Positions 17,025 to 63,320 of a stretch of 64,000 bases of DNA are shown piece after piece (within the stretch, counting starts at the first letter, position 1; every line of letters begins with the position of its first letter). The translations under genes and the position numbers were made by a program. Below the pieces are notes generated by a model. That model was given only the letters and a program-made list of their open reading frames with translations. It was not told where the DNA came from and ran no database searches. The DNA lies in contig JBAZJY010000003.1 in NCBI GenBank assembly GCA_041651115.1, forward strand, positions 3,188 through 67,187. The letters run 5' to 3'. Source of the DNA: Candidatus Omnitrophota bacterium (lineage in GTDB: Bacteria; Omnitrophota; Gorgyraeia; Gygaellales; Profunditerraquicolaceae).

Positions 17025-17030
17025 AAGTTC

Positions 17031-17125
17031 GTTATTAAGTGGCGGAGAGTGGCCCCGCTTGCGCGGGGCTGCCGTTACTATACGACGCCACTTGTTGCGT
17101 TATTAAGTGGCGGAGAGTGGATTTC
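17031..17125. repeat. two tandem copies (17030-17052 and 17097-17119) of a 23-nt repeat CGTTATTAAGTGGCGGAGAGTGG, each with downstream hairpins. Resemble tRNA 3'-end/att-like fragments.
   Basis: Identical 23-mers at 17030 and 17097. On the minus strand they read ...CCACTCTCCGCCACTTAATAACG, similar to the tRNA 3' end CCTCTCGCCGCCACTAAT at 17200. The CTCCGCC part is complementary to the GGCGGAG 5' end of the partial tRNA at 17388-17426. Confidence 0.5.
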
Positions 17126-17199
17126 CAGCCGCCGTTATTTTAACGTCCGGCGGCGCAGTCCCCTGCTTCTTAGGGGAAAACCACCGGATAACAAATTAG

Positions 17200-17273
17200 T
17201 GGCGGCGAGAGGATTTAAACCTCTGACTTATCGGGTATGAGCCGACTACTCTATCGGGCTGAGTTACGCCGCC
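17200..17273 (-). tRNA. tRNA with CAT anticodon (elongator Met or Ile2/lysidine type). No encoded CCA.
   Basis: Minus strand: GGCGGCG-TA-ACTC-AGCCCGATA-GAGT-A-GTCGG-CTCATAC-CCGAT-AAGTC-AGAGG-TTTAAAT-CCTCT-CGCCGCC-A. It folds as a cloverleaf with a 7/4/5/5 bp stem pattern. The D-loop has GA instead of GG18-19 and the T-loop has U56 instead of C56, an apparent A19-U56 covariation. About 125 nt upstream of tilS in the same orientation. Confidence 0.75.
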
Positions 17274-17387
17274 AAAATCTACTATTATAATCCAGGCGCA
17301 TGTCCTTGCTCGCTTTGCTCGCAAGGATTAATTCGGCCAGCAAACTTATGTTTGCTATCGCTCCACAAGTTTGGGCCTCATTTAAGT

Positions 17388-17426
17388 ATGAGCCGCGTGC
17401 TCTATCAGGCTGAGCTACTCCGCCAA
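17388..17426 (-). pseudogene. tRNA(CAT)-like 5' half fragment (acceptor, D-arm, anticodon stem 5' strand and loop only)
   Basis: Minus strand: GGCGGAG-TA-GCTC-AGCCTGATA-GAGC-A-CGCGG-CTCATAC, then no complementary CCGCG or T-arm. About 80% identical to the 5' half of the intact tRNA 115 nt downstream. Confidence 0.45.
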
Positions 17427-17429
17427 ATT

Positions 17430-18026
17430 TTATTTTTTCTTGCGCAGCTGGTATTCTACATAACCGGCAAGGACTTCCGCTACCTTTATCGGAGGCTGCA
17501 CAACAAAATAACGGCTCATTATCGCGTGGGCGATCTCATGGCCAAGCACTTCTTTTGTAAAATTATCCGGAGAAGTATAAATCGTGTTTAAGTCGGCAAC
17601 AAAAAGCGTATGGTTTTCCGGTTCCCTGCCGAAAAACTCCTTATAAAGGTTGCTCAATTGCGCTTCATTGCGGCAAACCTTGATATTGCCGTGAAAACTG
17701 TAAATATGCATATCCAATATATCGGATACCCTTAAAAAAAGCGTATCGACCATATCGGCAAGGCTATCAGCAGAACCACCCGCATAATCAGAGCCCCATT
17801 TTTCAGTAGAGCCGCCGGTAAGGACTCTATCCTCTACTCCGATGTTCAGCTTTTGGCTAAGCTCCGCAGGGTCAACCTGTGAAGCGTAATACACGGTAAA
17901 ATATTTGCCCTCTACGCGGCGCGCCGAACCAAAACCGTCATCAAAACCATAAACCATTCCGGCTGCGGCAGGCACGAGCAGCAAAACGAGGCATATTATA
18001 CAATAAAACCGGGATTTCGGCATCAA
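17430..18026 (-). CDS. secreted protein with HExxH motif (putative small zincin-like metallopeptidase)
   Basis: Signal peptide (CIICLVLLLVPAAAG). HEIAHAIM motif near C-terminus. Otherwise unrecognised. Confidence 0.4.
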   Translation of the reverse strand: MMPKSRFYCIICLVLLLVPAAAGMVYGFDDGFGSARRVEGKYFTVYYASQVDPAELSQKLNIGVEDRVLTGGSTEKWGSDYAGGSADSLADMVDTLFLRVSDILDMHIYSFHGNIKVCRNEAQLSNLYKEFFGREPENHTLFVADLNTIYTSPDNFTKEVLGHEIAHAIMSRYFVVQPPIKVAEVLAGYVEYQLRKKK

Positions 18027-18736
18027 GATTTAAAATACCGGATTATTCTGTCTAATTCGTCGGATATCCTTTTAATATCGGTTAAGTGGCTACGCTTGTG
18101 CTCCGGAAGCTCACCCTCGGAAAGCTTATCCATTTTTTCTTTCAAAGAACCGAAATTAAGCTTAAGCAAATTGATCTGCTCCCTGTTCTTTGCGATCATG
18201 CTATTGAATGCGTTTGTCACGTCCTGCAGCTGGTCAAGCTTGCGGGTCTGGAATTCCGAACAATAATCGCCTCCCTCTACTGCCTTTAGCACTTTTTTAA
18301 ACCGAAAAAGCGGGCCGGCGATCTTATGCGAAATAAACAATGTCACGGCGATCGTAGCAATGCCGACAATTATCCCTACCACCACTACCGTTTGAACCAG
18401 CACCGGCAGGATAAAGTCTGCGGTGGAACGCACCAGCACGCGCGAATGCACAACCGAAACCGTGGTAGAGCGCATTGCCAGGAGGTAAACGCCGCCTACG
18501 GTAAGGATACCTCCCAAGAAAACCAGGGAGCAGAACTTTAAAATAAAATCCGTCTGGAATTTTTTACCGATAAAATAATTCCCGCGCTTGTAAGTTTTGG
18601 CTGCTTCCGCCATCTTAGTCTCCCTCTGCACAGAAAGTGCGCACCAAACCATTCCAGCAGTAAGCGACACTTGCCCATCCTCTAGGGCAAGGTGCCTATT
18701 GGTTTGGGTGTTATTTATTATCTGCTTTAAGGTCAA
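18023..18736 (-). CDS. two-TM membrane protein with HAMP domain and C-terminal coiled coil (real start probably internal ATG near 18613)
   Basis: TM1, periplasmic segment, TM2 (VVVVGIIVGIATIAVTLFISHKIAGPL), then an LFRFKKVLKAVEGGDY...NAFNSMIAKNRE HAMP-like amphipathic helices. No kinase or MCP output domain. The first 41 codons overlap the upstream gene. Confidence 0.45.
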   Translation of the reverse strand: MTLKQIINNTQTNRHLALEDGQVSLTAGMVWCALSVQRETKMAEAAKTYKRGNYFIGKKFQTDFILKFCSLVFLGGILTVGGVYLLAMRSTTVSVVHSRVLVRSTADFILPVLVQTVVVVGIIVGIATIAVTLFISHKIAGPLFRFKKVLKAVEGGDYCSEFQTRKLDQLQDVTNAFNSMIAKNREQINLLKLNFGSLKEKMDKLSEGELPEHKRSHLTDIKRISDELDRIIRYFKS

Positions 18737-19313
18737 GCAGGTTCAAGTTCAGCTTGGTGTCGGCTTGGCTGCGCAACGAAGCCATCCAATCACCCAGTAT
18801 ACGGCTCTCTTTTACGCGGGTAAGCTCCCATTTGATCTGATTATAGAGCTGATCATAGGGCTTATCGGTTTTCCCCTCTTCTTTTAACTTATTATATACT
18901 GCTTCGATCTCTTTATCCGTAACAACTACCGCTCCGGCAACCTCTTTTGCTTTCCTGTCCAGGGTCAATTTTAAAAGCGACTGCTCCCAGAAGCGCTCCA
19001 CCATTTTAAGGAAGTCCTTATCCCTGTCAATGCCCTTTGCCTCGGCATCCTGGAGGATAACCTTGCGGTTGATCAGCATATTCAGGAATTCCTTCCGGGA
19101 ATCGGGAGTATCGATCCTGCCGTAGGCTGAAAGCTTGAATTCTTCGTCAAATTCTTCCTTTGTAATTTCATAATTATTGATCTTGGCAAGGATCTCTTTG
19201 TTTTTAGGCGCTTGCTTTGCGCATCCGCAGATAACAAATACTACCAATAATAAAAAGGCAATTAATCTCTTCATTGCCGGCTCCTTTCCTGGTAAATTTA
19301 CATCATTATACAA
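18711..19313 (-). CDS. lipoprotein with SurA N-terminal-like chaperone domain
   Basis: MKRLIAFLLLVVFVICGC lipobox-like signal. KINNYEITKEEFDEE...RKVILQDAEAKGI resembles the SurA_N / PpiD N-terminal chaperone module. Confidence 0.45.
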   Translation of the reverse strand: MYNDVNLPGKEPAMKRLIAFLLLVVFVICGCAKQAPKNKEILAKINNYEITKEEFDEEFKLSAYGRIDTPDSRKEFLNMLINRKVILQDAEAKGIDRDKDFLKMVERFWEQSLLKLTLDRKAKEVAGAVVVTDKEIEAVYNKLKEEGKTDKPYDQLYNQIKWELTRVKESRILGDWMASLRSQADTKLNLNLLDLKADNK

Positions 19314-19352
19314 TACCTCGCTAGAATTTACTATTAAAAAATCATGCGGGTT

Positions 19353-22300
19353 TTACTTCAAAAACGGCAGCAAGCCTTCATGGCCGAGGATGTTTATCCG
19401 GCCGTCAATAAACTCATAGGCGTCTTCTTCAAGTATGAACTGATCAAAAGCAGAATAATCAGCGCTTACCAGAGGATGATAGAAATAAACCACCGGCATA
19501 AGGGTAAAAGTATTTATCCGGTATAAAGCCATATCTGTCTCGCTAAGCACCGGCTTAAGCAGCGCGTCAGCAGTTGCCAATTGAGAGATAACCGCAGGTA
19601 ATGATCCGGTAATATTAAAATTACCCGATGTTATAGCACTTAAACCTGCCGCAGAAGCAGTCAGCGCATAGCCGGTACCTGGCAGGTTAATGAATAAGTC
19701 GCCAAAAGTAACTACTCCGCCTGAAGCAGTGTGGGTGAGCGTTCCGGAAAGAGCTGCTCCGGAAGGATTAATGCCAAGTGCAATACTCACGGAAGTCGCA
19801 TTATCCGTGCTGGCAGTATTGCCGAATTGATCTCTAAGCGTAATGGTTATTGCCGGCGCGATCAACGTATTAAAATCAACGCTGGACGGCTGCTGGCTAA
19901 ATACCATTATAGCCGCAGCAGCAGGGTTCACGGTTACTGCCAAAGGAACCGATGTAGTAACCGCACCCTGCGTTGCGGAGATCGCGGCGCTTTCCGCGTT
20001 ATATAATACTGCGCTGCCTCCGCTGGTTGAAACGCCGTTAGTAAAAGTAACCACGGTATTTGCGCCAAAACTTATTGCTGCGCCGTTCTTATCCGTGACC
20101 GTAGGAACGAAGCTGCCAATAGAATTTGCTCCGCTAAAGACCAGGGTTTTGTCTCCGGAGTAAGACAAGGCTGTGCCGCCGACCCCGTCAATTGCCGTGA
20201 TCGTCAGGAGATTGGCTGCCCCGGCATTCTGTGAGCCGGAGCCGGAGACTACGAAATGGTCCACCAGGTTCCAGTTAGTATTATTGCCGCTGTCTTTTGA
20301 GCTTGTTGCCGTTATCACAGAAGCGTTGATATTATTTGAATCTTTTACATCTACAAAAGAAACACTGCGGCTTCCTTGCGGATCGATCAGCCATTGCGAG
20401 CCGCTTACTGAACTGCGCAGGATGATCAGGTTACCCGATGTGCCGGTAAGTGTCAACGCTCCGTTAATAGTCAGCGTTGTGCCTGCGGTAAAGGTAACCT
20501 GATTACCCGCGGATACGGTAAAGCTTCCGGTAACAAGCTTATCGCTTAACGAGGCAAACGTCGCCTTGTTGGTATTGGTATCATTAATGCTCAAATTAAA
20601 GTAGTCCGTTGCCCCGAAATCTTTGATCGTAATGGTTTCCGCGATATTCCTGCCTACATATTCCCAGGTTCCGGAGTCAGTATCATTCACTGTCCAGGAT
20701 ACGGTTTCTATTCCCTGCAGCCGCAAGGTACCGTTATTCACGAAAGAAGTGGTAGTGGTAATATTAAATCCGTTAAGATAAAGCACCCCCGAGCTGATCG
20801 TCAGGGTGCCGTTTATATCCAGGTTATTATTGATCAGCGTAACTACCGCTCCGCCGGATTTATTAATCACTAAATCCTGGAAATCGTCGCCTGCAGCAAC
20901 GCCGCCTGAATCAAGCGTAGAATTAATTGAACCGTCAAACGTAACTATGCTATCCTGGGAATTAAACGTTGCGGAATTTGACCAATTACCGGCAACGTTA
21001 ATACTAAAATCGGACGCACTTGTATTAAGTGTGCCGCCTGAGATCGTCAAATTGCCGTCTACATCAAGATTACCGGCAAGGGTTGAGGTACCACCGGTGA
21101 ATTCAATATTATCAAATGCCATAGTGGTTGAGGTCCCCTGTCCGTCTATAGTATTCGCGCCGTTAAAGACCACAAGCGAATTATTGGTAGTAGCGTCCAC
21201 TGTTCCCGCGATATAAGTCCAGGCTCCTGCGCCTGCCCCATTTATGCGGATCGTACCTGCCAGCGTTAAAGTGCCTGCGCTCTTATTAATCGTCAAATCA
21301 GGCAGCTCGCCGGCGCTGACCGTAGCATTGCCGGTAAAAAGCTGGTTGGCAGATCCCGTGATCTGAAGCAGCGCAGAGCCGCCATCAGTCAAACTTCCCT
21401 GGATCAGATCTCCCTGCACATTAATAGTTCCGGTATTGATCGTTCCATCGGTATAGGTAAAAGTACCGGTTATAGTAAGCGTAGTGCCGCTTGCGATTAC
21501 CCTGGTCCCGGCATTATTGAAAGTCACATTATTCAGGGTATGCGAACCCGTAATAGTCATACCGCCGTCAAATACCAGCGTGCTTGAGCCGGTATTCAGC
21601 GTCCCTGCCGTATATGTCCAGGCATTCGCGCCCTGCCCATTGGTACGGATAGTGCCGGCGAGGAAAAGCGTACCGCTGGCCTTGTTGATCGTAACATCGG
21701 GTAATTCGCCTGCCGTTGTAGTGGCGCTGCCGGTAAAAGTCTGATCAGAAGCGCCGTCAATAATCAGCGTAGCTGTGCCTCCGTCAAACGTGGATAATTG
21801 AACAATATTCCCGCGCGCGGAAACTGTGCCGGAATTAATACCGCCGTCGGTCAACGTAAGAGTTCCCATAATAATAATCGTATCTGCTGCAGCTACTGTC
21901 TTGTTTGCGGTAGAATTAAAATTTACATTGTGGAATGTTTCGGTGGTAAGCACATTGATCGTGGCGCCTGCGCCGCTAAAAGTAACGCTGCTGGTACCCT
22001 CGTTAAACGCGCCTGCGCCGGAAATAGTAAAATTATTGGCAATGTCAAGATTAGCTGAACCCGCGTTAAATATGCCTGTGCCTGAAGCAGCAAAGTTATT
22101 CGCTATGTTTATATTGCCGGTACCTGCATTGAAAGTGCCGCCGGAAACGCTAAAATTACGGCTTACTGTCAAAGTTTGACCGCCTAAATTAACCGTACCT
22201 CCTGCCTGGCTGAAATCCCTGACTGAAAGCGAACGCTCAAAAGTAATAGTGCCTGTATAACCCGAACCGATCAACAGGTCGCGGATCGTGCCGGCAAAGG

Positions 22301-24035
22301 CTGCGTCTACAATAGAATCTTTGGTTGAGGTAGCGTCAAAGGTCGCGTCAGTAGTAGAGATTGGCAGGGTATTGCCTGACCAGTTATCCGCGTCAGACCA
22401 GTTATTGGTAGTACCGCCGCCGTCCCAGGTAGGGTCAATTTCAAAATTAACGTTGTTTCCCGCGTCAACGCCGATCGGGATAATAACGGTATTTAACGCG
22501 TAGGCATCACGGATATTCACTCTTTCAAGGAGATATCCTGCAGCCTGAAGGTCCAGATACCAATATTCGCCTGCCTGGCTTGAACGCAGTTTAATGAAAA
22601 ATTCTTCAGGGCCGATATCAACAGCGCCGATTATACTCAAGCTTCCTTTAAAAGTATATGTCTTTCCCGCTTCAAAATATATTTCTTTATCGGGGATCGC
22701 TAAATTGAGATTATAAAAAGTAATATTTCCGTAAAGATATACGGGTTCATTTCCTAAAAAGCTTACTTCTGCTGCCTCTAATGTAAGGCTTGAGCCTTTA
22801 TCATAGAGGATCGCGCCGAATCCATCCGGAGGACCGCGCAGCAACACACTTGTGCCGATGCCTAAGCTTTCCAATATATCTATGTTGCCTAATGACCGGA
22901 TAAAATGAATATGCTCCGCGTCAATTGCGATAGGAAAACCTGCTGCGCCAAGGCTCCTGGCAGTGATATTTACTTCACTTGCCCGGATAACCACAGCTAA
23001 AGTTGCCACGTCAGCTAAAGGATCGCTGTTTAAAGTCGTCTTTATGTTTTCAGCTTCAATAACTACTTCTCCGCCAACAGCTTCTATTAAGCCATCCTGG
23101 ATTACGTCTGCTGCCTTTATATAAACCGCTCCGGCCCCTGCTTCTAACGCCCCGGCATTAATCACCGGAGCGCCTTCGGCTACCAGCTCAATTATCCCAT
23201 TATTGCTTACAAGGTTAGTTGCCTGGATTATACCTGAATTATTGATCGCGTGATCAAAGATATGATTCAAAGCTTTGACGGCTAAAATTACTTTGCCTCC
23301 CGGATTAAGGATTGTCCCGCTATTGCGAACGGCCGAGCTTAATTTTTCGCCGTCAAAGCCAAATATTTCTTCTTTTACAGCTTCATCGATCACTACGGAA
23401 ATCATGCCGGCAGTATCAAGATTAAGGGTGATCTTCTCTCCGGCTGCCAGGACTACCGAGCCTAATGTCGTTTCAATGGTGCCGGCATTAGCTACCGCAG
23501 AGCCCAATAAAACCGCCTGTCCGCCTTCCCTTATTTTTATGTAGCCGTTATTTATTACCGGCTTGCCTACTTTATCTACCCATTTAGTAAAAATATAATT
23601 TGAAGAAAGGAAATCGCTGTTTTGTATATTTAATGTGGAAGCGATAATGCCTGCGGCATCTATCCTTGCCAATGGGCCGATATTTATGCCGTTGGGATTG
23701 ATCAGATAAATTATGCCGTTTGCGCTAAGCGTGCCGAATATGCCGCTTATTTGGTCGCCCAAAACGCGGTTCAAGGCAGCAGAGGTTGCGGACGGCTGAT
23801 AAAAATAAACCGATTCGCCGGCTGCAATGCTAAAACTGTTATAATCAATGATTAATTTATCGGAAGGAGTGGTGATCTTAAGGATGTTCGGTTCGGAGCG
23901 GTCAAAACTGGCGCTACCCTCAATTATGCTTTCTCCTTCAGGAAGGGCAAAAGCAGAATTCAGGCTGATAAGCCAAAGGCTTACCAGTGCCAGTATCCAT
24001 ACGCTTATCTTTTTAACTCTATGCACCCTCAACAT
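19353..24035 (-). CDS. two-partner secretion exoprotein TpsA (filamentous-haemagglutinin family), 1560 aa, beta-helical with internal tandem repeats
   Basis: Signal peptide. N-terminal TPS domain (IIDYNSFSIAAGESVYFYQPSATSAALNRVLGDQISGIFGTLSANGIIYLINPNGINIG) with the NPNGI motif. Long Gly/Thr/Asn-rich beta-helix region with two ~133-aa tandem repeats. C-terminal 50 aa shared with the 24980..26581 protein. Confidence 0.8.
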   Translation of the reverse strand: MLRVHRVKKISVWILALVSLWLISLNSAFALPEGESIIEGSASFDRSEPNILKITTPSDKLIIDYNSFSIAAGESVYFYQPSATSAALNRVLGDQISGIFGTLSANGIIYLINPNGINIGPLARIDAAGIIASTLNIQNSDFLSSNYIFTKWVDKVGKPVINNGYIKIREGGQAVLLGSAVANAGTIETTLGSVVLAAGEKITLNLDTAGMISVVIDEAVKEEIFGFDGEKLSSAVRNSGTILNPGGKVILAVKALNHIFDHAINNSGIIQATNLVSNNGIIELVAEGAPVINAGALEAGAGAVYIKAADVIQDGLIEAVGGEVVIEAENIKTTLNSDPLADVATLAVVIRASEVNITARSLGAAGFPIAIDAEHIHFIRSLGNIDILESLGIGTSVLLRGPPDGFGAILYDKGSSLTLEAAEVSFLGNEPVYLYGNITFYNLNLAIPDKEIYFEAGKTYTFKGSLSIIGAVDIGPEEFFIKLRSSQAGEYWYLDLQAAGYLLERVNIRDAYALNTVIIPIGVDAGNNVNFEIDPTWDGGGTTNNWSDADNWSGNTLPISTTDATFDATSTKDSIVDAAFAGTIRDLLIGSGYTGTITFERSLSVRDFSQAGGTVNLGGQTLTVSRNFSVSGGTFNAGTGNINIANNFAASGTGIFNAGSANLDIANNFTISGAGAFNEGTSSVTFSGAGATINVLTTETFHNVNFNSTANKTVAAADTIIIMGTLTLTDGGINSGTVSARGNIVQLSTFDGGTATLIIDGASDQTFTGSATTTAGELPDVTINKASGTLFLAGTIRTNGQGANAWTYTAGTLNTGSSTLVFDGGMTITGSHTLNNVTFNNAGTRVIASGTTLTITGTFTYTDGTINTGTINVQGDLIQGSLTDGGSALLQITGSANQLFTGNATVSAGELPDLTINKSAGTLTLAGTIRINGAGAGAWTYIAGTVDATTNNSLVVFNGANTIDGQGTSTTMAFDNIEFTGGTSTLAGNLDVDGNLTISGGTLNTSASDFSINVAGNWSNSATFNSQDSIVTFDGSINSTLDSGGVAAGDDFQDLVINKSGGAVVTLINNNLDINGTLTISSGVLYLNGFNITTTTSFVNNGTLRLQGIETVSWTVNDTDSGTWEYVGRNIAETITIKDFGATDYFNLSINDTNTNKATFASLSDKLVTGSFTVSAGNQVTFTAGTTLTINGALTLTGTSGNLIILRSSVSGSQWLIDPQGSRSVSFVDVKDSNNINASVITATSSKDSGNNTNWNLVDHFVVSGSGSQNAGAANLLTITAIDGVGGTALSYSGDKTLVFSGANSIGSFVPTVTDKNGAAISFGANTVVTFTNGVSTSGGSAVLYNAESAAISATQGAVTTSVPLAVTVNPAAAAIMVFSQQPSSVDFNTLIAPAITITLRDQFGNTASTDNATSVSIALGINPSGAALSGTLTHTASGGVVTFGDLFINLPGTGYALTASAAGLSAITSGNFNITGSLPAVISQLATADALLKPVLSETDMALYRINTFTLMPVVYFYHPLVSADYSAFDQFILEEDAYEFIDGRINILGHEGLLPFLK

Positions 24036-24103
24036 CTTAAGCTCCTGTCTGATTGTATCCCCTTTTTTCTACACTATTTAGATGCTTCAGGAGCTAAAAT
24101 GTT

Positions 24104-24886
24104 TCAGGATTTTTTGCGGATAAAATCCGCTATTTTCACCTCCAATTCAATCGGCAAGTCACGGCATTCCAAGAACTTAGCGACTTTGATCGCTTTAGAG
24201 TATTTGCTCAGGAATAATTTGCATGGCCGGCAGTCTTTAATATGCCTATCAAAGGCTTTTTTGCGGGTCTTGCCTAAAGAACCGCGGCTATAGTTATATA
24301 CGAACCCTTCCCAGATGCTGCAGCGGGGGTTTTCCTCTTCATTTTTCTCCAGTTTATCCTTAAAATAATCCTTTGTTTCCGCGGCAAGCATCATCTCTGC
24401 CCTGCGCAGCCTTGTCCTGAATGATGCTTCCTTAAGCTTTAAAACCGCAGCCGCGGCTTCACCCGGCATACGTTCAACATAGTGCAGCACCAAAGGCATA
24501 CGGTATTCAATCGGCAGCTGCTTGATCGCGTTATCAACCCGCTGCCGGAATTCGACATCAAGCGCCTGTTCATCAGGCATTTTTGACCAGTTAACGAACA
24601 GCCCGGAAAGCTCCTTCTTTGTCCCGTCTTTAAAACCGTCAATCAGCTTGAAGCGGCTTGAACGCTTTCGCAGATACATCAACGCTTCATTATAGGCGAT
24701 CTTATATATCCAGGTAGAAAGGTATTCGCGGTTCTTCAGCTCTTTAATGTTATCAATGATCTTCACGAATACGGACTGCACCACGTCTTCAGCATCAGTC
24801 TGATTCCTGGTAATGCTCAAGGCAAGGCCGTAGATCTTATTTTTATAGTTCTTGAAGATCTCTTCTATTTTGATTCGTGGCTTCAT
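24104..24886 (-). CDS. ECF-type sigma-70 factor fused to a C-terminal zf-HC2 anti-sigma domain
   Basis: Region 2 (DAEDVVQSVFVKIIDNIKELKNREYLSTWIYKIAYNEALMYLRKR). Region 4 (LPIEYRMPLVLHYVERMPGEAAAAVLKLKEASFRTRL). Then FDRHIKDCRPCKLF, the HxxxCxxC anti-sigma zinc finger. No TM segment. Confidence 0.7.
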   Translation of the reverse strand: MKPRIKIEEIFKNYKNKIYGLALSITRNQTDAEDVVQSVFVKIIDNIKELKNREYLSTWIYKIAYNEALMYLRKRSSRFKLIDGFKDGTKKELSGLFVNWSKMPDEQALDVEFRQRVDNAIKQLPIEYRMPLVLHYVERMPGEAAAAVLKLKEASFRTRLRRAEMMLAAETKDYFKDKLEKNEEENPRCSIWEGFVYNYSRGSLGKTRKKAFDRHIKDCRPCKLFLSKYSKAIKVAKFLECRDLPIELEVKIADFIRKKS

Positions 24887-24929
24887 AATACCTAATTATA
24901 TACCGCGTTAAAGAAAATGCTACAAAAAA

Positions 24930-24975
24930 AAGAGGGGACGTTTCTAAGGAAACGTCCCCTCTTTTTTAAGAGCTT
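24930..24975 (-). terminator. rho-independent terminator after the 533-aa tpsA gene
   Basis: Perfect hairpin AGAGGGGACGTTTC-(loop)-GAAACGTCCCCTCT flanked by an A-tract on one side and a T-tract on the other. On the minus strand it is followed by TTTTTTTT. Confidence 0.65.
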
Positions 24976-24979
24976 AGTT

Positions 24980-26581
24980 TTACTTTATGCCTTCAAGGAT
25001 CGGAAGCAAGCCCTGATGGCCTTTGATGTTGAGCGAACCTTCAATGAAGTCATAGGCGCCTTCTTCAAGGACAAATTCATCAAACCCGTTCATTGCCGAA
25101 GCAGTGATCGGATGATAGAAATATACCAATCTCGGGTCAACCGCATTATACTGCCAAACGGCAAACTGCTCGTTATAAGGCAAGCCTTCCTTGCCCCACA
25201 AATCGCTCGCAGAAACCCGGGGAGTAGGATCCGGCTCAGGCGGTAAATCCGGGTAGGTGGCAAAGCTTGAGGCAAAACGTATTACAGCATCATCAAAATC
25301 CTGATCCCCGCCGTTGGGATAATCCTCAAACCCATATATGACTCCAGTCTCTTTTACATGATCCTGTTTTGAACCGCTGTTAAGGGAAGATTCTTCATAC
25401 CAGATATAATCATTCTTCCCGTTCTGGAAAATACAATACAGCTTAAACTCAGTGGCATCTAAAGAAGTCTGACCTGTTCCAGAACCACTCTTGATATCTT
25501 TTCCCGGAAGAGCCTGAGCAAAAGGCACGCGCGTAAGCACACCATTATCATAATAGTAATAGCCGAGTTCAATCAATTTAAAACCCCTTGAACCGCTCAA
25601 ATACTCCCATGAAAACACGCCTAAGCTATCTATCTCGCTGCTGTTAAAGCCGGAAACCAGCATGCCGGTATTTGTGACGTCATCAATTATCGGGTCGCCT
25701 TCTGCCACCAACTCGATCACGCCGTTATGATTTACAAGGTTGATTGCCTGAATAACTCCGGTGTTATTAATCGCATAATCAAAAATACCATTAAGGATCT
25801 CAGCATTTAAAATAACTTTCCCGCCGTCAGCACGGATCACACCGGAATTTTTTATCGCACATTTCATACCCAGTACGTCATTCTTCACCACATCATCGAT
25901 GACTACGGATATCGTGCCCGCAGGATCAAGGTTAAGGGTCATTTTTTCTCCTGCTGCCAAAACTACGGTGCCGAGATCAGCAATGATCACCCCGCGGTTT
26001 TCAACTGCCTGCGACAAAAGGCAGACATAACCGCCGTTATTAACATTAATATTGCCTTCGTTAATAATGGAGCCGTCTACTCCGACCTTTTTTAAAAAAT
26101 TATACGCCCCAAGACGGAAATCCGCATCGCTAATCTCAAGGGTAGAAGCAACTAATGCGGGGGCGTCAACGCGTGAACCTGCGCCAAAGATTACACCATT
26201 AGGATTAACTACAAAGATCTTTGCGGTTTCAGAATAGAGCGTACCGAGGAAATTCGTAGGGCTGCCGTTTGCAATACGGTTTAAAACTGTTGAGCCTCCG
26301 TAAAAATTTACCGCTTGGCCTGAATCAGTATCAAAGGTACCCCAATTAATAATTGCGTTGGCTGAAGGATTAGTAATCACGACATCAACTTTAGTATCGG
26401 GAACAGTAGTGACAACAGCTAAACCACTGGTAATATCATCTCCACTTGCCCCGGACGGCAAACAAAACGCCAATGCAGGAGTAATTAAAGTAAGGATTAT
26501 TGCAGCTAAGATTCTTTTATGACGGGCCATTTTGAAGGTCTCCTTATAGTTATGAAAACGCTTTCTTTTTAGCACGAACAA
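24980..26581 (-). CDS. second TpsA-family exoprotein, 533 aa (TPS domain + distinct middle + shared C-terminal tail)
   Basis: Signal peptide. TPS domain (IINWGTFDTDSGQAVNFYGGSTVLNRIANGSPTNFLGTLYSETAKIFVVNPNGVIFG). Region through NHNGVIELVAEG collinear with the large TpsA. Last ~50 aa (VYFYHP...FDEFVLEEGAYDFIEGSLNIKGHQGLLP) about 60% identical to the large TpsA C-terminus. Confidence 0.75.
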   Translation of the reverse strand: MFVLKRKRFHNYKETFKMARHKRILAAIILTLITPALAFCLPSGASGDDITSGLAVVTTVPDTKVDVVITNPSANAIINWGTFDTDSGQAVNFYGGSTVLNRIANGSPTNFLGTLYSETAKIFVVNPNGVIFGAGSRVDAPALVASTLEISDADFRLGAYNFLKKVGVDGSIINEGNINVNNGGYVCLLSQAVENRGVIIADLGTVVLAAGEKMTLNLDPAGTISVVIDDVVKNDVLGMKCAIKNSGVIRADGGKVILNAEILNGIFDYAINNTGVIQAINLVNHNGVIELVAEGDPIIDDVTNTGMLVSGFNSSEIDSLGVFSWEYLSGSRGFKLIELGYYYYDNGVLTRVPFAQALPGKDIKSGSGTGQTSLDATEFKLYCIFQNGKNDYIWYEESSLNSGSKQDHVKETGVIYGFEDYPNGGDQDFDDAVIRFASSFATYPDLPPEPDPTPRVSASDLWGKEGLPYNEQFAVWQYNAVDPRLVYFYHPITASAMNGFDEFVLEEGAYDFIEGSLNIKGHQGLLPILEGIK

Positions 26582-26776
26582 AAGAAAGTTTACCCAATGG
26601 AAACGGCTTTGTCAAGGCGATATTTTAATGAGGCCATGGCTTATTGAGCGAATAAAAACGAGCGAAAATAAGCCATTGGGCCGAATTGAGATCCTTAAGT
26701 TTTGATTTAGCGAAATCCCGCAGCTGCGAGTAGATTTCTACAAAATCTACGAGCTGCTTGCTGTCGGGATCTATCC

Positions 26777-28480
26777 CTAGAACGTTTTGGAAACTTCCGC
26801 CCAGGTTTGCACGCCTTTTCCGTCAGACGGCTTCTGGTCCAGAGGCCAGGCAAATTCTACGCGCGCGCTGAAATCTTCCGGTAAATTAATGCGCAAACCG
26901 CATCCCGCGCCTCTTAAGGTCTTATTCTTCTGTTCTCCTGCCTGCGGCCTTCTTAACCTGACATTTGCCCAGTCATAAAAAGTAACGATCCTTACCGCAT
27001 CATAGATTTTTGCCTTTGAAAGCGGGAATCCGATGGACTTCGGCACAAAATACGGCGGGATTGACCATTCCCAGGTCATGGAATAACCATTATCGCCTAC
27101 TGCTTCCGCAGCCGGATAACCGCGCACGTTGACAATGCTGCCGATCTGAAACTGTTCTGTAGAAGTAAGGATATTGGGGGTAAGCTGTATCTGGTTTTTC
27201 CAGTATATGGAAGAATCAAACGGCAGTTTCTGGCGATGTAAAAGGTTTATTATCTCTTTGGTAAACTCCCCGCCTGCGCCGTCGCGGGACGCGCGGGTAT
27301 CGCGCTTCTTCAAGCCTGCCATAATATCCGGGATGCCATAATCAAATTCTGCCATAAGCAGCGTGCGGCTTAACCTGGTGGTAACATCCCAGTCAAAGCC
27401 TATGCGGCTGATGCGCAGCCGGTCGCGGCTGGTTTCCTCTCCTGCCTGGAAATTAAAAACATCCTTGTAATCAAAACCAAGGTTTAAGACTAAATTGCTA
27501 TTCTCGTTATTGACTAATATCTGCTGGGCATAAACGCCATAGATCCGGCTCTTGCCGCGGACATTCAGGTCCTCAAATTCTTTTTGCAGCTTGATCCGTG
27601 AGTTTGCGGCTACAAAGCCGATATTCAGGTCTCTGGTTACCGGCAGGATATAACGGCCGCTCAACAAAACATAATTTTCGCCTTCCGAGCCCTGATAATT
27701 AACCTCCAGGCTGTCGTCAAAGCCTAAAAGGTTATTATGCGTAAGCGTAGTTTTAAAACGATTGTAATTAATATAGCGCGAGCCAAAATTATCCCAGGCA
27801 AGGCCCAAATGTATGGGCAGGCGGTCCTTTACCTCTACCAGCACATCGGTTGTCCCGGGGTCTTTGCCCGGAGCAATGACTGCCTTAGCGTTACGGTCTG
27901 CCTGTTCATTGATCAGGCTTAAGCCTTCGCGCAATTTTTCGTAATTAAAAGGCTGCCCCTTTTTAAGCGCGATCTTACGCTGATACAGGGAAGATTTAAA
28001 GAACCGGTTACCTTTTATTTCTACGTCGCCGGTAATTCCTTCCAGGACTTTTACTTCAAGGTTTCCGCTTTCAATTTTTTGCGGGGGCAGGTAGGCGCGG
28101 GAAGTAACAAAGCCTTTCCTGCGGTAGATATCGGTGATCATGTCTACCATCTTCTGCATATCCTTAAGCATAAGCTCTTTGTTTTTGAATTCCGCGGTAA
28201 CCGCATTGATCTCGTCTTCCGTAATAAGCGTAGCGCCGGTTACGGTAATACTCGTAACCATGACTTTTTCGGTTGACTCCGGGAGCCGGGGCTGCGCAGC
28301 CTGAGGCTCTTCCTCAATTTCCGCCTTTGGGCTGGGCTTATCAAACTTTTCCTGCAACCGTATTTCCTTGTCAATCTTACGCTGGGACGTAGAAATCGTG
28401 CCCGCCTCGTCAGCGGCATATACAAAACCAAACGCAAAGATAAAAACTAAACCTAAAAGAATCGCGGGCGCCTTTTTCAT
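26777..28480 (-). CDS. TpsB outer-membrane transporter (ShlB/FhaC family; POTRA domains + 16-strand beta-barrel)
   Basis: Start assigned to the internal ATG at 28480 (MKKAPAILLGLVFIFAFGFVYA signal peptide; AGGAGG SD 8 nt upstream; ATGA overlap with the upstream stop). POTRA-like VTSITVTGATLITEDEI...DIYRRKGFVTSRAYLPPQKIESGNLEVKVLEG. Ends ...WAEVSKTF with the aromatic terminal residue typical of OMPs. Confidence 0.8.
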   Translation of the reverse strand: MKKAPAILLGLVFIFAFGFVYAADEAGTISTSQRKIDKEIRLQEKFDKPSPKAEIEEEPQAAQPRLPESTEKVMVTSITVTGATLITEDEINAVTAEFKNKELMLKDMQKMVDMITDIYRRKGFVTSRAYLPPQKIESGNLEVKVLEGITGDVEIKGNRFFKSSLYQRKIALKKGQPFNYEKLREGLSLINEQADRNAKAVIAPGKDPGTTDVLVEVKDRLPIHLGLAWDNFGSRYINYNRFKTTLTHNNLLGFDDSLEVNYQGSEGENYVLLSGRYILPVTRDLNIGFVAANSRIKLQKEFEDLNVRGKSRIYGVYAQQILVNNENSNLVLNLGFDYKDVFNFQAGEETSRDRLRISRIGFDWDVTTRLSRTLLMAEFDYGIPDIMAGLKKRDTRASRDGAGGEFTKEIINLLHRQKLPFDSSIYWKNQIQLTPNILTSTEQFQIGSIVNVRGYPAAEAVGDNGYSMTWEWSIPPYFVPKSIGFPLSKAKIYDAVRIVTFYDWANVRLRRPQAGEQKNKTLRGAGCGLRINLPEDFSARVEFAWPLDQKPSDGKGVQTWAEVSKTF

Positions 28481-29238
28481 CGCTGTCCCTCCTTTTTGTC
28501 TAAACTTGTAATTTCGCTTTTTATGCAAACTTCAAGAATGTCACCTTTAATTTCTGTTGTTATTTCATCGGCTGCCAGCTTAACGCCTTTTTTCTCATAA
28601 GCCTGCGTAAGCGCGCCGGCTATCTGGTTGATATCGTCTTCAGTCAGCCAGTGCCCTTCAAGCGGCGGAATGATCTCCCCGATTTCTTTTTCATTGAGCA
28701 ATTCGGCGCCTTTTATGCTGATTTTTTTAACGAATACTTTGTCCGGGCTATTGATCTTTTGCCTTAGCGCCGCCTCTTCTTCAAGCAACTCCTCAAACCG
28801 CGCTATTTCGCCGGCGGTTTTTTGCGCAAAGCAAAGAGGTATACCGCCATCGATAATATTGGCAATCCTTTTTGCAAATAAAGCATAACCTACGGCAAGC
28901 GCGTTCAGGCAGGCGATCAAAGAAACTGCCGCGGCAATGTCTTTAACCAGCTTTATCAGGATATGATACTTGCGGGTAGTCATATCAATCATCATTTCAA
29001 TTGCCGTATTGAAGATCTCCGCCATAAATACGAGAGTGATGGTAATGCATAGCGCGATCAATTCAAGGCCGTTTAATCCAAAATAGACGCCCAAAAGGAA
29101 TGCCGCGACCCCGAGCATGAACATGATGCGCATATTGCGGTGATAAAGGAACAGATAGCCGACGCCTTGCGCTGCCAGCCGCATGCTTTGAAAAAATCCC
29201 GTGAAACGGAAGATATGCTTAAGTACCCGCTTTTTCAT
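28477..29238 (-). CDS. prokaryotic diacylglycerol/undecaprenol kinase (DgkA) fused to a C-terminal POTRA-like periplasmic domain
   Basis: N-terminal 125 aa has three TM helices and the DgkA signature EIFNTAIEMMID plus KDIAAAVSLIACLNALAVGY. C-terminal 125 aa (VFVKKISIKGAELLNEKEIGEII...DDINQIAGALTQAYEKKGVKLA...GDILEVCI) is collinear with the POTRA_2 region of the adjacent TpsB. Start TAATG overlaps the acsE stop. Stop overlaps the tpsB start. Confidence 0.6.
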   Translation of the reverse strand: MKKRVLKHIFRFTGFFQSMRLAAQGVGYLFLYHRNMRIMFMLGVAAFLLGVYFGLNGLELIALCITITLVFMAEIFNTAIEMMIDMTTRKYHILIKLVKDIAAAVSLIACLNALAVGYALFAKRIANIIDGGIPLCFAQKTAGEIARFEELLEEEAALRQKINSPDKVFVKKISIKGAELLNEKEIGEIIPPLEGHWLTEDDINQIAGALTQAYEKKGVKLAADEITTEIKGDILEVCIKSEITSLDKKEGQR

Positions 29239-30026
29239 TATTTTTTTCTATACGCGTCCAAATAAGAATCGCAATAAATATGCTTATTGAGGATCAATTC
29301 CGCGGTTATCGCTGAATCTACAAGCTCTTTATCTTTAGGATCCATTATAGCAGCATCTAAGCCATAAGCAACTGCCATTGTTAAGAACGTGCGGTTGATC
29401 AAACCACGCACACAGCTGCCCTGCGATACGTTGCTTAAGCCCAGGATTGTCTTGGGCGAAGGCTCGGAGATAATCTTAAATTCACGGATAGATTCCAGAA
29501 TGTCTAGCATCTGCGGCTGGGCAACGTTCACCGGCAGCACGATCGGATCAAGAAAAAGGTCATCAATAGCAAAACCCTGGTCAACGCAGGTAGAGACAAT
29601 AGTTGCTGCCAGTTCCAGGCGCTGGTCTTTATTCTGCGGAATGCCTTTTGCGCTTATGGTGATGCCGATCAGCCTGGCCTTATATTGCTTTGCCAACCCT
29701 ACCAAAACCTCTAATTTGTCCGGATCAGCAGTAGTAGAATTGATGATCGGCCTGCTCTTTATCACTTTTAAGCCGGACTCAATGACTTTAGGCTTGCTGG
29801 AATCAAGCGCCAGCGGCTTATCGGTTACTTCCTGTATGGTTTCCACCAGCCACTGAATATCGGAAACCGGGTCGCGCGACACCGGGCCGCAATTCACATC
29901 TAAAGCGTCTGCGCCTGCCTCAACCTGTTCAAGCGCGCATTTTTGTATGGCTGACTTATCGTGCTCCTTGATCGCTTTGCCGATATTCTGATACATCCCA
30001 TTGATCAGCTCGCCGATTATGAACAT
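29238..30026 (-). CDS. acsE: methyltetrahydrofolate:corrinoid/iron-sulfur protein methyltransferase AcsE (pterin-binding MeTr)
   Basis: MFIIGELINGM...DVNCGP...INSTTAD...LGLSNVSQ...IYCDSYL matches AcsE/MeTr. Start placed at ATG 30026 (AAGGAG SD 7 nt upstream) rather than the TTG at 30056, which lies inside a palindromic repeat. Confidence 0.75.
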   Translation of the reverse strand: MFIIGELINGMYQNIGKAIKEHDKSAIQKCALEQVEAGADALDVNCGPVSRDPVSDIQWLVETIQEVTDKPLALDSSKPKVIESGLKVIKSRPIINSTTADPDKLEVLVGLAKQYKARLIGITISAKGIPQNKDQRLELAATIVSTCVDQGFAIDDLFLDPIVLPVNVAQPQMLDILESIREFKIISEPSPKTILGLSNVSQGSCVRGLINRTFLTMAVAYGLDAAIMDPKDKELVDSAITAELILNKHIYCDSYLDAYRKK

Positions 30027-30040
30027 ATAGCTCCTTAGAT

Positions 30041-30117
30041 TAGGGACGGTTCTCAACTCAAAGCTAAAGTGTCCCCCCTACGGGGACACTTTACGATTGG
30101 CTTGAGAACCGTCCCTA
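30041..30117. repeat. ~76-bp nested palindromic intergenic element, copy 1 (REP/MITE-like)
   Basis: TAGGGACGGTTCTCA...GTGTCCCC-CCTAC-GGGGACAC...TGAGAACCGTCCCTA. 15-bp perfect terminal inverted repeats plus an inner 8-bp hairpin. A second copy with identical termini is at 61018-61093. Confidence 0.6.
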
Positions 30118-31073
30118 AACAGGTTATCGATATATTTTTTTATTTTCTCAATTGCGACCGGATGTCTCATCACCAGGATATCCGCGCCTGCCTGGACCAG
30201 CGCGGCTGCGGTTACAGCTTCCCAGGTCACGCCCCGCTCCATTTCCGGGCCCCATGCCGGCATTTCTGCAACAGGCAATTTCGCTTCTTTTGCCCGCCAT
30301 GATTCCTGACCCACAAAACAGATAAACGGGCTGGCAACGGTTTTATCTCCGGCTAAAGCTGCCAGACGGCTGCGTTCCATAATTGAATAAGCATACTCAA
30401 GCCCATACCCCAGGGCGCCGATCGTCGGGTTGATCACGATCCGCTCTAAGGGCAATCCCATATCTGAAATCAAGATATTCAACTGCTTGGCAATATTTAT
30501 GTCTATGGGCGATTCGGCAATAATGCTGTGGCCGTCAGCCAGGACCGCGGCTGCCAGCGTTTTATAATTATCCTGCACAGCGCTCCCGATCAAGCAGCGT
30601 TCACCTTTGGCAGCTTCACAACAGGCAGGCAAAACCTGATTATCTTTGGCATCATCCCCGCATCCGGTGATCACCAGCGGCACAGTTATCTTTTTCAATA
30701 GTTTTTTAATAAAGTCTGCTGCCTCGGCAGGCCCCTTATTGCCGGATTCAGGATGCGTTCCCTGTAATTTTACGCAAAGCAGCTCGGCCTTATATTCGCG
30801 CACGCATTTCTCCGCCCAGGCAAAGGGATCCTTTAGAACTTTTCCGTAGGCACAAGCTAATGCTTCCGGCCAGTCATTCGGAAGTATATCCCAAACCTCA
30901 TAAGCGATCACCGGCTTATTGGGGATCGCGCCTTCTGCGAATAAATACGGTAAGGCTTTTTGGCCGCCGACCTTGACCTGCCGGCTGCGTGAACCGCCCT
31001 CTTGCTTTGTCGCTCCGATAGTTACCGTAAAAACTTCACCCGACCATTTTTCCAGCATCAACTCAGTTGCCAT
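30078..31073 (-). CDS. acsD: corrinoid iron-sulfur protein small subunit AcsD (CdhD-like, TIM-barrel)
   Basis: 331 aa. WSGEVFTVTIGAT...VITGCGDDAKDNQVLPACCEAA... Collinear with CFeSP small subunits. The last ~13 codons overlap the palindromic element. Confidence 0.7.
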   Translation of the reverse strand: MATELMLEKWSGEVFTVTIGATKQEGGSRSRQVKVGGQKALPYLFAEGAIPNKPVIAYEVWDILPNDWPEALACAYGKVLKDPFAWAEKCVREYKAELLCVKLQGTHPESGNKGPAEAADFIKKLLKKITVPLVITGCGDDAKDNQVLPACCEAAKGERCLIGSAVQDNYKTLAAAVLADGHSIIAESPIDINIAKQLNILISDMGLPLERIVINPTIGALGYGLEYAYSIMERSRLAALAGDKTVASPFICFVGQESWRAKEAKLPVAEMPAWGPEMERGVTWEAVTAAALVQAGADILVMRHPVAIEKIKKYIDNLFRDGSQANRKVSP

Positions 31074-62954: not shown

Positions 62955-62989
62955 CTGTTCCTCCTATTTTTTGTTTTTAATTAATAGAC

Positions 62990-63320
62990 AAGCAGGATAA
63001 GCCGGGTTCTGTGTGGGATGCGAATATCCGCTTCCTAAAGTGGCCATTCCTCTAAACCCCGGCGTTGCCGCCGGGATCAAGCAGCCTACCCGAGACTATT
63101 AACGGAGAGGCACTCCTCGTCTCTTATTCGGCCTTGCTCCTCGTAGAGATTGCTCGTTTCACCCCCGCCGTTTTGAGGCGGCGGGACTCGTCTCTGTAGC
63201 TCTGATCCTCACCCCGGCAATACTGCCTGAGCGGACGGGTGTTACCCGCTACGGTGCCTTCTGGAGCCCGGACTTTCCTCCCCCGCAGCTTAAACTGCGG
63301 GGGCAGCCACATCCTGCCTG
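62990..63320 (-). ncRNA. rnpB: RNase P RNA (bacterial type A)
   Basis: Minus strand contains GGAAAGTCCGGGCTCC (P4 5' strand), a P3 hairpin CCCGCAG..CTGCGGG, GGGTAGGCTGCTTGA and 3' ACAGAACCCGGCTTATC. The P1 strands GCAGGAT/ATCCTGC pair. The ORF 63124..63312 in the track is therefore spurious. Confidence 0.8.

Follow-up and report, generated by a model that had tools for sequence, protein, structure and literature searches.

Two-partner secretion (TPS, type Vb) is defined by the need for a cargo (TpsA) and an outer-membrane transporter (TpsB) only, and a block of eight genes in an Omnitrophota genome raises the question of which genes around such a pair may belong to it and how they came to lie there. 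The block occupies positions 17430-29238, minus strand, of a 64,000-nucleotide stretch from a Candidatus Omnitrophota bacterium (contig JBAZJY010000003.1, positions 3,188 to 67,187); this whole stretch, at its full length, is called the window here. The original prediction, made from the letters alone, described a TPS island beside a tRNA locus, with two cargo genes, a regulator between them and a set of dedicated accessory genes. All eight consecutive open reading frames (ORFs) are indeed present in the ORF list and translations, next to a tRNA-Met gene at 17199-17273, and in order of transcription they encode DgkA-POTRA, TpsB, TpsA2, an extracytoplasmic function (ECF) sigma factor, TpsA1, and the SurA_N, HAMP and HExxH proteins:

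28477-29238, minus: DgkA-POTRA fusion, 253 aa; Pfam DAGK_prokar (E 4.5e-26) and POTRA_2 (E 1.4e-7)
26777-28480 (ORF 26777-28528), minus: TpsB outer-membrane transporter, 567 aa from ATG; POTRA_2, POTRA, ShlB and Omp85 matches
24980-26530 (ORF 24980-26581), minus: TpsA2, short cargo, 516 aa from ATG; TPS domain, DUF4114-like middle, C-terminal module
24983-25120, minus: C-terminal module of TpsA2, last 46 aa
24104-24886, minus: ECF sigma factor (sigma2 and sigma4) with a fused 85-residue four-helix extension; Sigma70_r2, Sigma70_r4_2 and TIGR02937
19353-24035, minus: TpsA1, long cargo, 1560 aa; TPS domain, long repeat-rich passenger, C-terminal module
19356-19493, minus: C-terminal module of TpsA1
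18711-19274 (ORF 18711-19313), minus: SurA_N-like lipoprotein, 187 aa from ATG; SurA_N_3, 31.5 bits against 27.2
18023-18613 (ORF 18023-18736), minus: small inner-membrane protein, 196 aa; weak HAMP match and orthologue alignment by eye
17430-18026, minus: exported HExxH protein, ~190 aa (198-residue ORF); HEIAH, no Pfam family

A secretion core with two cargoes

From its domain content, the presence of a TPS core consisting of TpsB and two TPS-domain cargoes is near certain. The TPS and ShlB profiles of Pfam and NCBIfam, by which the original prediction could be judged, score on all three core genes. The TPS domain (PF05860) is matched by TpsA1 at 104.2 bits (E 1.4e-29) and by TpsA2 at 78.6 bits (E 9.5e-22) against a cut-off of 33.5, and TIGR01901 at 67.9 and 51.2 bits respectively against a cut-off of 29.1. 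The two translations carry the NPNG motifs LINPNGINIG and VVNPNGVIFG, and their hydrophobic N-termini, read by eye, end in ..AFALP and ..AFCLP as Sec signal peptides do. TpsB has the two POTRA domains and ShlB-type barrel of a TPS transporter of the Omp85 superfamily (POTRA_2 at residues 91-164, POTRA at 167-212 and ShlB at 225-546, the last with 96.4 bits against a Pfam cut-off of 22.7, E 2.8e-27), together with the loop-6 VRGY motif (NVRGYP), which is invariant in four orthologues. Its likely start is the ATG at 28480, overlapping the upstream stop codon as ATGA.

The two cargoes have common ends, as first noticed. Pairwise comparison aligns the N-terminal ~310 residues (45% identity, E 8e-60) and the last 46 residues (57% identity, E 1e-15), and found no similarity in the region that separates them. 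The accompanying idea of interchangeable cargo modules is plausible given that tandem TpsA genes also follow a single TpsB in two relatives (L015, 11787-20510; L018, 11807-21696), there with no sigma gene between them. The second TpsA of L015 is split into ORFs of 910 and 591 aa, suggesting a frameshift or an assembly error.

A profile of the C-terminal module, built from the two window C-termini and searched in 1.84 billion proteins, matches 219 representatives, all at the extreme C-terminus and almost all of them Omnitrophota-like metagenomic proteins. About 45 carriers have an N-terminal signal peptide and are apparently full length (408-4675 residues), and all of these have a TPS domain except P0313; the remaining matches are mostly C-terminal fragments. 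The consensus sequence reads G-PVYFYHPLT-x-xD-xxAFD-F-L-xxxAYEFI-G-LN--GH--LLPFL, in many cases with a Lys/Glu tail after it. P0313 (457 aa) joins a signal peptide to the module with no TPS-domain match, and the sequence at its mature N-terminus (AAELERARQLS) is reminiscent of the helix that TpsB and the POTRA protein have. The TpsA1 orthologue of contig L044 (3538-8766) ends inside the module (..AYFYHPLTGLDIAFFEQLEKRRYAL*), and its tag is thus truncated. No further copies of the module, the sigma gene, TpsB or the accessory genes were found elsewhere in the window. Plausibly the TPS domain and the C-terminal module are the parts of the cargo that meet the secretion machinery, and we infer that the module may serve as a retention or handling tag, comparable to the prodomain of FhaB and the C-terminal anchor of HMW1 (PMC5422565 and general knowledge); a connection with the metalloprotease-like HExxH protein is speculative.

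Two cargoes with different middles could also belong to a contact-dependent growth inhibition (CDI, CdiA/CdiB-like) or cytolysin system, in which the TpsA C-termini are toxins and a small downstream gene confers immunity, and TPS systems often deliver C-terminal toxins (PMC5422565). Pfam, however, finds neither a pre-toxin VENN domain nor a toxin domain, only the TPS domains and the DUF4114 of TpsA2. A toxin would also be at odds with the C-terminal ~50 residues, which show conservation and not polymorphism across the 219 representatives, and the chaperone-like lipoprotein, HAMP protein and zincin that lie downstream are conserved across the phylum, unlike variable immunity genes. A CDI toxin system was rejected on the lack of toxin domains and the conserved C-terminus, and we regard it as very improbable.

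Probable helper genes and the inheritance of the locus

Relatives were sought by scanning one genome per species with the TpsB alignment, which gave 33 Omnitrophota loci, some of them labelled Planctomycetes or Deltaproteobacteria, with four gammaproteobacterial systems as outgroups at ~26% identity. The TpsB orthologues in these 33 genomes are 42-62% identical, and the TpsA proteins of their loci range from 779 to more than 3300 residues. A recurrent gene order emerges, with synteny in L002, L003, L005, L008-L010, L015, L033 and L038: an optional CdhD-AcsE-DgkA segment, the POTRA protein, TpsB, one or two TpsA, then SurA_N, HAMP and HExxH. The neighbourhood proposed for comparison is therefore kept in relatives, but not in its entirety, as the sigma gene and the short cargo are missing from all 33 related TpsB loci (no sigma homologue or TpsA2-like middle region, 0/33); on gene content these two genes are lineage-specific.

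The first gene of the block deserves separate treatment. Residues 1-~124 of the fusion are a three-helix diacylglycerol kinase (DAGK_prokar, PF01219, 91.1 bits against a cut-off of 22.3), and alignment to E. coli DgkA (3ze3) shows that E-x2-N-x3-E-x3-D and the KD residues are kept, the acidic, Asn and Lys residues of DgkA having catalytic roles. Residues ~125-138 are the remnant of a signal-peptide c-region (..PLCFA|Q), and residues 139-253 form a helix and one ShlB-type POTRA domain. Because this last part is C-terminal to DgkA, whose topology is N-in with three helices, it should lie in the periplasm. Most relatives encode the POTRA protein on its own, as a chain of 127-160 residues that opens with a classical cleavable signal peptide (its end being ..[CS]FA|Q or ..AYA|Q) and continues with a helix (SASQIQRSQEILEKEKALREKIE-like) and a single POTRA domain. 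Since this layout parallels the N-terminus of TpsB, which the POTRA half of the fusion resembles (E 6e-6), the protein looks like a detached paralogue of the N-terminal helix and POTRA1 of the transporter.

Fused homologues number about eight among 5.8 billion clusters, all of them upstream of TpsB. An assembly or frameshift artefact was rejected, as the fusion recurs in independent assemblies (48-55% identity) and has no internal start or stop. It might be functional as such, coupling a lipid kinase to the secretion machine, for example in diacylglycerol recycling or in anchoring the POTRA domain at the inner membrane. This would fit its retention in at least four assemblies that are only 48-55% identical and have the DgkA catalytic residues intact, as well as a crude neighbour-joining tree of TpsB, without support values and suggestive only, in which the fused loci fall into two groups and which hints that the fusion arose recurrently, perhaps twice. 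Several observations nevertheless make a functional fusion fairly improbable. The dgkA gene is separate and directly upstream of the POTRA gene in four loci (L010, L013, L015 and L026), and in many others it is absent or not adjacent. In L038 (9318-9767) dgkA has seemingly been deleted, leaving its first codons (MPTGRN..) joined to the POTRA ORF, and in the closely related L010 (9143-9930) both genes are intact. The POTRA protein of L007 (8697-9944, 416 aa) is fused to a GT2 glycosyltransferase, with the full hydrophobic segment and the AYA|Q site retained, a POTRA fusion of another, independent kind. Finally, all of the DgkA-fused forms keep an A/C-x-A|Q signal-peptidase-type motif, the c-region alone of the old signal peptide (PLCFAQ, TPAFAQ and SVSYAQ), as would fit release of the POTRA domain.

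As the comparison reads, then, the conserved partner in the locus is the small secreted POTRA protein, and DgkA is incidental to it. Since DgkA is separate, deleted or absent in relatives, and a glycosyltransferase takes its place in L007, it is not a dedicated accessory; the description of the accessory genes as dedicated fails for DgkA, although several of the others are kept beside TPS genes in relatives. In the window the last DgkA helix may replace the signal peptide for export of the POTRA domain, and the retained site (C-F-A|Q here) may still be cut, a possibility that we rate a little below even; the position of the remnant, 8-14 residues past the DgkA helix, counts against it.

The three genes that follow TpsA1 encode small envelope proteins. 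The lipoprotein matches SurA_N_3 at residues 16-99 and has no parvulin peptidyl-prolyl isomerase (rotamase) domain in Pfam, so that by its domain content it is SurA_N-like and not a SurA orthologue; its orthologues keep the lipobox L-x-[GA]-C. The second protein combines two transmembrane helices and a periplasmic loop of ~20 residues with a HAMP-like domain and a coiled coil; it has no output domain, and its N-terminal segment and periplasmic loop, STTVS(I/V)(I/V)NSRVVVRSTADF, are strikingly conserved in orthologues. Its NCBIfam matches are confined to the HAMP regions of kinases, and the orthologue in L128 carries the precomputed label "HAMP (weak)". The third protein has an HExxH motif and a downstream Glu ligand on a zincin fold, as in the gluzincins (clan MA); its model is that of a minimal gluzincin-like zinc peptidase, and its family is specific to Omnitrophota. 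The TPS, ShlB, POTRA_2, Sigma70_r2/r4, DAGK_prokar and SurA_N labels of the original prediction are all borne out by the profiles, but those of HAMP and zf-HC2 fall below the curated cut-offs.

Whether these three proteins and the POTRA protein are helpers of the TPS pathway or general factors for outer-membrane biogenesis or quality control depends largely on where their genes are found. SurA-like chaperones and periplasmic metalloproteases are known as general envelope factors (PMC9820271 and general knowledge). Sampling from the HExxH side shows the trio to be contiguous in L128, L129 and L130; it is preceded in L128 by POTRA-TpsB and a ~5-kb stretch without a called gene, and in L130 by a beta-helix protein of more than 5000 residues. 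Weighing against a dedicated role, the trio of L129 lies away from any TpsA/TPS genes, several complete TpsA genes have no trio after them, the HAMP match (PF00672, 20.6 bits) does not reach its cut-off of 25, and the tie of the accessory genes to TPS is one of synteny only, strong but not absolute. On the other side, the trio directly follows TpsA in at least nine independent loci, two of them found from the HExxH side, and the POTRA gene directly precedes TpsB without exception, in more than 20 loci. A functional link of the helper genes to TPS is, on this gene order, quite probable.

The surroundings of the block bear on its inheritance. Directly upstream (29238-33794, minus strand) are Wood-Ljungdahl genes for an AcsE-like pterin-binding methyltransferase, CdhD, a CooC-like ATPase and the corrinoid activator RACo, with a 12-bp hairpin between CdhD and AcsE (30065-30093) and the AcsE stop overlapping the dgkA start; Wood-Ljungdahl genes are also upstream in L001-L003, L010, L013, L015 and L026. 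Downstream there are two tRNA features:

17386-17424, minus: degenerate 5' half of tRNA-Met, 33/39 identical to the intact gene
17199-17273, minus: intact tRNA-Met (CAT), from tRNA and Rfam scans

The half-copy begins 6 nt past the HExxH stop codon, and 112 nt separate it from the intact gene downstream. A block that adjoins tRNA-Met, with a degenerate 5' half-copy abutting its last gene, might be a horizontally acquired island integrated at the tRNA, the half-copy being an attachment-site scar. Yet integration usually duplicates the 3' end of a tRNA, and the duplicated piece here is the 5' half on the upstream side. There is no integrase or mobility gene in or beside the block, and its GC content is flat across the window, at 0.44-0.49. 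Moreover, the order from AcsE to tRNA-Met and TilS is found in relatives at about 50% protein identity: tRNA-Met directly follows HExxH in L010 and L038, in both of which the intact gene occupies the position of the half-copy, and TilS lies further on in L038 and L130, as it does in the window. The half-copy looks like the remnant of a local duplication. A mobile island at tRNA-Met was rejected on synteny, flat composition and the lack of mobility genes; we find it hardly credible, and the word "island" in the original prediction has to be given up. Because the order from AcsE to tRNA-Met recurs in relatives, the locus is, judged by its gene order, a conserved and vertically inherited chromosomal one.

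Between tRNA-Met and a flavodoxin/ferredoxin-like gene there is a 23-nt direct repeat, CCACTCTCCGCCACTTAATAACG, at 17098-17120 and 17029-17051 (minus strand), the copies being 69 nt apart and each preceded by AACGGC(G/A)GC. The Rfam scan found no regulatory RNA in the block, and the window contains one further RNA gene:

62985-63320, minus: bacterial RNase P RNA class A, 195 bits

The sigma factor and the proposed control of the cargo genes

The regulator predicted between the cargo genes is present as a single polypeptide, an ECF sigma factor with a fused anti-sigma-like domain. The sigma part has the ECF (group 4) layout of sigma2 and sigma4 without sigma3 (Pfam, NCBIfam TIGR02937), and the fold matches of its model are SigH, SigW, AlgU and sigma-E, sigma chains only with nothing on the extension. 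After this whole-model search had matched sigma chains alone, the extension was searched against the PDB as a separate profile. Its top three matches are the anti-sigma factors DdvA (E 0.008), RsiW (0.017) and RsrA (0.017), with RslA fifth, and this concordance is telling as an indication of what the extension may be. The extension contains C189...H215-x3-C219-x2-C222 (C-x25-H-x3-C-x2-C) plus C241, and thus the H-x3-C-x2-C motif with upstream ligand of zinc-binding anti-sigma (ZAS) domains; among 61 family members there is no exception at C189 or C241, and H215, C219 and C222 are kept almost without exception. AlphaFold2 (AF2) gives four confident helices over residues 189-259, with His215 ending helix 2 and Cys219/Cys222 starting helix 3. 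ZAS domains have this layout, with the His at the end of helix 2 and the Cys pair at the start of helix 3. No membrane helix is predicted in the model.

About 100 homologue clusters cover the full 260 residues, the named ones being Omnitrophota or Omnitrophica except for one from the Patescibacteria group, and a metagenome scan with the sigma protein gave eight close relatives only, the rest being generic ECFs. Text searches of two ECF classification papers (PMC7826278, PMC7671368) turned up neither a soluble fused-ZAS group nor Omnitrophica. Orthologues in L045-L047 lie among genes for peroxiredoxin, DJ-1, rubredoxin, rubrerythrin and flavodiiron protein, with desulfoferrodoxin, glutaredoxin and thioredoxin-reductase-like genes in the same clusters and a rhodanese often next. 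Since the orthologues are found in oxidative-stress clusters, the family's gene context points to a redox role like that of SigR/RsrA. The family usually occupies such clusters, often with a small rhodanese gene after it (L045, L046, L047 and L051), and one member, P0063 (392 aa), has a rhodanese domain (PF00581) on the same polypeptide. In L044 the sigma orthologue shares its start with the sequence of an overlapping Cys-rich ORF of 57 residues (CPIC...CQKC, 2430-2603), which the window lacks.

The intergenic regions on both sides of the sigma gene, and that upstream of TpsA2, contain the following candidate signals:

26587-26615, minus: candidate sigma-70-like promoter TTGACA-17-TAAACT upstream of TpsA2 (consensus scan, 10/12 matches)
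24924-24967, minus: intrinsic terminator after TpsA2, a 13-bp G+C stem plus A/U pairs, then a T run
24895-24900, minus: TATAAT, a perfect hexamer 8 nt before the sigma ATG (sequence reading)
24080-24106, minus: candidate ECF-type promoter TGAAAC-N15-GCATCT(AAAT), overlapping the sigma stop and 45 nt upstream of the TpsA1 ATG

The strong terminator reported between the short cargo gene and the sigma gene folds at -35.1 kcal/mol (z = -9.0), and between TpsB and TpsA2 there is none, folding there being no better than that of shuffles (z -1.4). TpsA2 may thus form its own unit of sigma-70-like promoter, gene and strong terminator. The TATAAT hexamer is a possible promoter that would give a leaderless or short-leader sigma mRNA.

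The ECF-type candidate is the only such site in the window. TpsA1-type genes are preceded by an A-rich/TGAAAC-N15-GCATCTAAAT pattern in the window and in L044, L023, L005 and L015, and the intergenic DNA itself is conserved between two of these loci (TGAAAC-ATTTTA-GCTCCTGAAGCATCT in the window against TGAAAC-TATTCT-GCTCCTGAAGCATCT in L044). A similar element, (T)GAAC or GAAAC-N15-17-GCATCTAAAT, is found just downstream of sigma orthologues in L045, L048, L051 and L053. There are 18 GCATCTAA sites in 656 kb of Omnitrophota sequence; six of the 18 have a correctly spaced -35-like element, and each of these six is found either in front of a TpsA1-type gene or closely behind a sigma orthologue. 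The sigma-TpsA1 pair recurs in one other contig, L044, where the gene of the closest sigma homologue (60% identity) is directly followed by that of a TpsA matching TpsA1 at 70% identity across the TPS domain and at 68% across the middle; neither TpsB nor the SurA_N/HAMP/HExxH trio is present at that locus. The comparison provides good evidence for transcription of TpsA1 from the promoter type associated with this sigma family, and it supports the independent control of the large cargo that had been proposed.

Were the helpers general factors, the sigma factor might likewise control other genes, with TpsA1 transcribed by read-through from the sigma promoter, and the lack of a terminator between sigma and TpsA1 would allow this. 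The motif, however, precedes the TpsA genes closest to TpsA1 in L023, L005 and L015, where there is no adjacent sigma gene. Taken with the synteny of the helper genes, this leaves general envelope factors and an unrelated regulator as an unlikely combination, and sigma-dependent transcription of TpsA1, from the TGAAAC-N15-GCATCTAAAT element by the adjacent ECF factor, as the likely arrangement.

The fused ZAS-like domain would probably keep the sigma factor inactive until its zinc-binding cysteines are oxidized. Considerations of several kinds tell against so specific a picture. The zf-HC2 profile (PF13490) gives 15.8 bits on the window protein, below the cut-off of 22.2 (E 0.015), although a precomputed match to it exists for a few homologues; the PDB profile matches are marginal (E 0.008-0.02 for the top three, to 0.29); the AF2 model has a predicted template modelling score (pTM) of 0.54, at which the docking of the extension on sigma2/sigma4 is not fixed; no motif of the sigma family was found upstream of the sigma gene itself; and the redox signal is read from the context of paralogues alone. 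Redox gating is accordingly a conceivable feature of this regulator, one from which we lean slightly away.

A possible expanded secretion pathway and its known counterparts

Taken as a whole, the locus is probably a vertically inherited type Vb secretion locus with a helper set. Both cargoes would cross the inner membrane by Sec and be recognized by TpsB through their TPS domains, the extra periplasmic POTRA protein capturing or handing over unfolded cargo and the SurA_N lipoprotein keeping it unfolded. The common C-terminal module could then act as a retention or handling tag that remains in the periplasm or with the transporter, and the zincin, perhaps under the control of the HAMP protein, may process or release the cargo, with DgkA a housekeeping neighbour. 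A broader proposal is that Omnitrophota use an expanded, multi-component TPS in which the POTRA protein, SurA_N chaperone, HAMP protein and zincin act with TpsB on the C-terminal tag to export, retain and release very large surface proteins (more than 4,600 residues in our sample), and that in this genome a single-chain redox-sensing sigma/anti-sigma protein also switches on one cargo. We put this forward tentatively, and with all of its parts together it is rather doubtful.

The core is a known kind of system; what is new is the conserved helper set, the C-terminal module of the cargoes, and the single-chain sigma/ZAS regulator with its promoter. No literature combining Omnitrophota with TPS, haemagglutinin or POTRA was found, Omnitrophota genome papers yielded no mention of the TPS pathway, and the literature search produced no paper describing a system of this composition, as the original prediction had surmised. 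If the helper set is real, four extra conserved envelope proteins across a phylum would mean that dedicated helpers can be added to the TPS pathway, and among these four proteins is a detached copy of the cargo-binding POTRA domain of the transporter itself. Omnitrophota are ultra-small and probably host-dependent, and their giant ORFs have been discussed as possible adhesins whose export route is unknown (PMC10066038). In our sample many of the large proteins are TPS cargoes that end in a common tag, and this suggests a testable export route; the enigmatic giant "adhesin" ORFs of the phylum would thereby gain a defined secretion pathway. The sigma/ZAS protein and its simple promoter make a compact, possibly redox-gated switch that can be tested in vitro without culturing the organism.

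Among known regulators, VreI of Pseudomonas aeruginosa belongs to a cell-surface signalling system in which the anti-sigma factor is a membrane protein of its own, unlike the self-contained cytoplasmic sigma/ZAS fusion described here. Sigma-VreI and PdtA/PdtB nonetheless provide a precedent for an ECF sigma factor controlling a TPS cargo, through the citation of Llamas et al. 2009 in a review of TPS (PMC5422565). SigR-RsrA, SigH-RshA and SigW-RsiW share the C...H-x3-C-x2-C zinc motif and the four-helix anti-sigma-like fold, and SigR and SigH resemble the present family in that its paralogues lie in oxidative-stress gene clusters (PMC8999054); here, in contrast, sigma and anti-sigma are one soluble polypeptide with an extra invariant Cys241 and a sub-cut-off zf-HC2 match. 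Fusion of an anti-sigma-like domain to the sigma C-terminus is shared with ECF48/52/53 and IutY (ECF243), but in those proteins, which carry membrane helices, proteolysis is the presumed trigger of activation (PMC8999054), whereas the extension here is ~85 residues with no membrane helix.

The combination of a HAMP inner-membrane protein, a periplasmic protease and a giant adhesin recalls LapD/LapG/LapA of Pseudomonas, by analogy only and with no claim of homology. LapA leaves the cell by type I secretion, the protease LapG is of the cysteine type, and LapD has GGDEF/EAL and a large periplasmic domain, unlike the HAMP protein here, with its ~20-residue loop and no output domain. In classical TPS systems SphB1, which acts in FhaB maturation, is a general factor. 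DegP, the chaperone of those systems, is also a general factor, and it and BcpO are the few accessory factors named in the TPS review (PMC5422565). BcpO, of the Burkholderia CDI locus bcpAIOB, is an extra small periplasmic lipoprotein needed for cargo function (PMC5422565), to which the SurA_N-like lipoprotein is likened by description only; bcpAIOB differs in having a toxin/immunity pair. Also among the closest counterparts are Bordetella FhaB/FhaC and Haemophilus HMW1/HMW1B, with which the locus shares a cargo TPS domain with the NPNG motif, a TpsB with two POTRA domains, ShlB barrel and VRGY loop, a large repeat-rich passenger, and a C-terminal part that plausibly stays with the cell (PMC5422565 and general knowledge). 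More than one cargo per transporter is known in systems of this type as well. The differences are that the free POTRA protein, SurA_N lipoprotein, HAMP protein and small zincin are conserved extras here, and that the ~50-residue C-terminal module of the cargoes is a distinct family.

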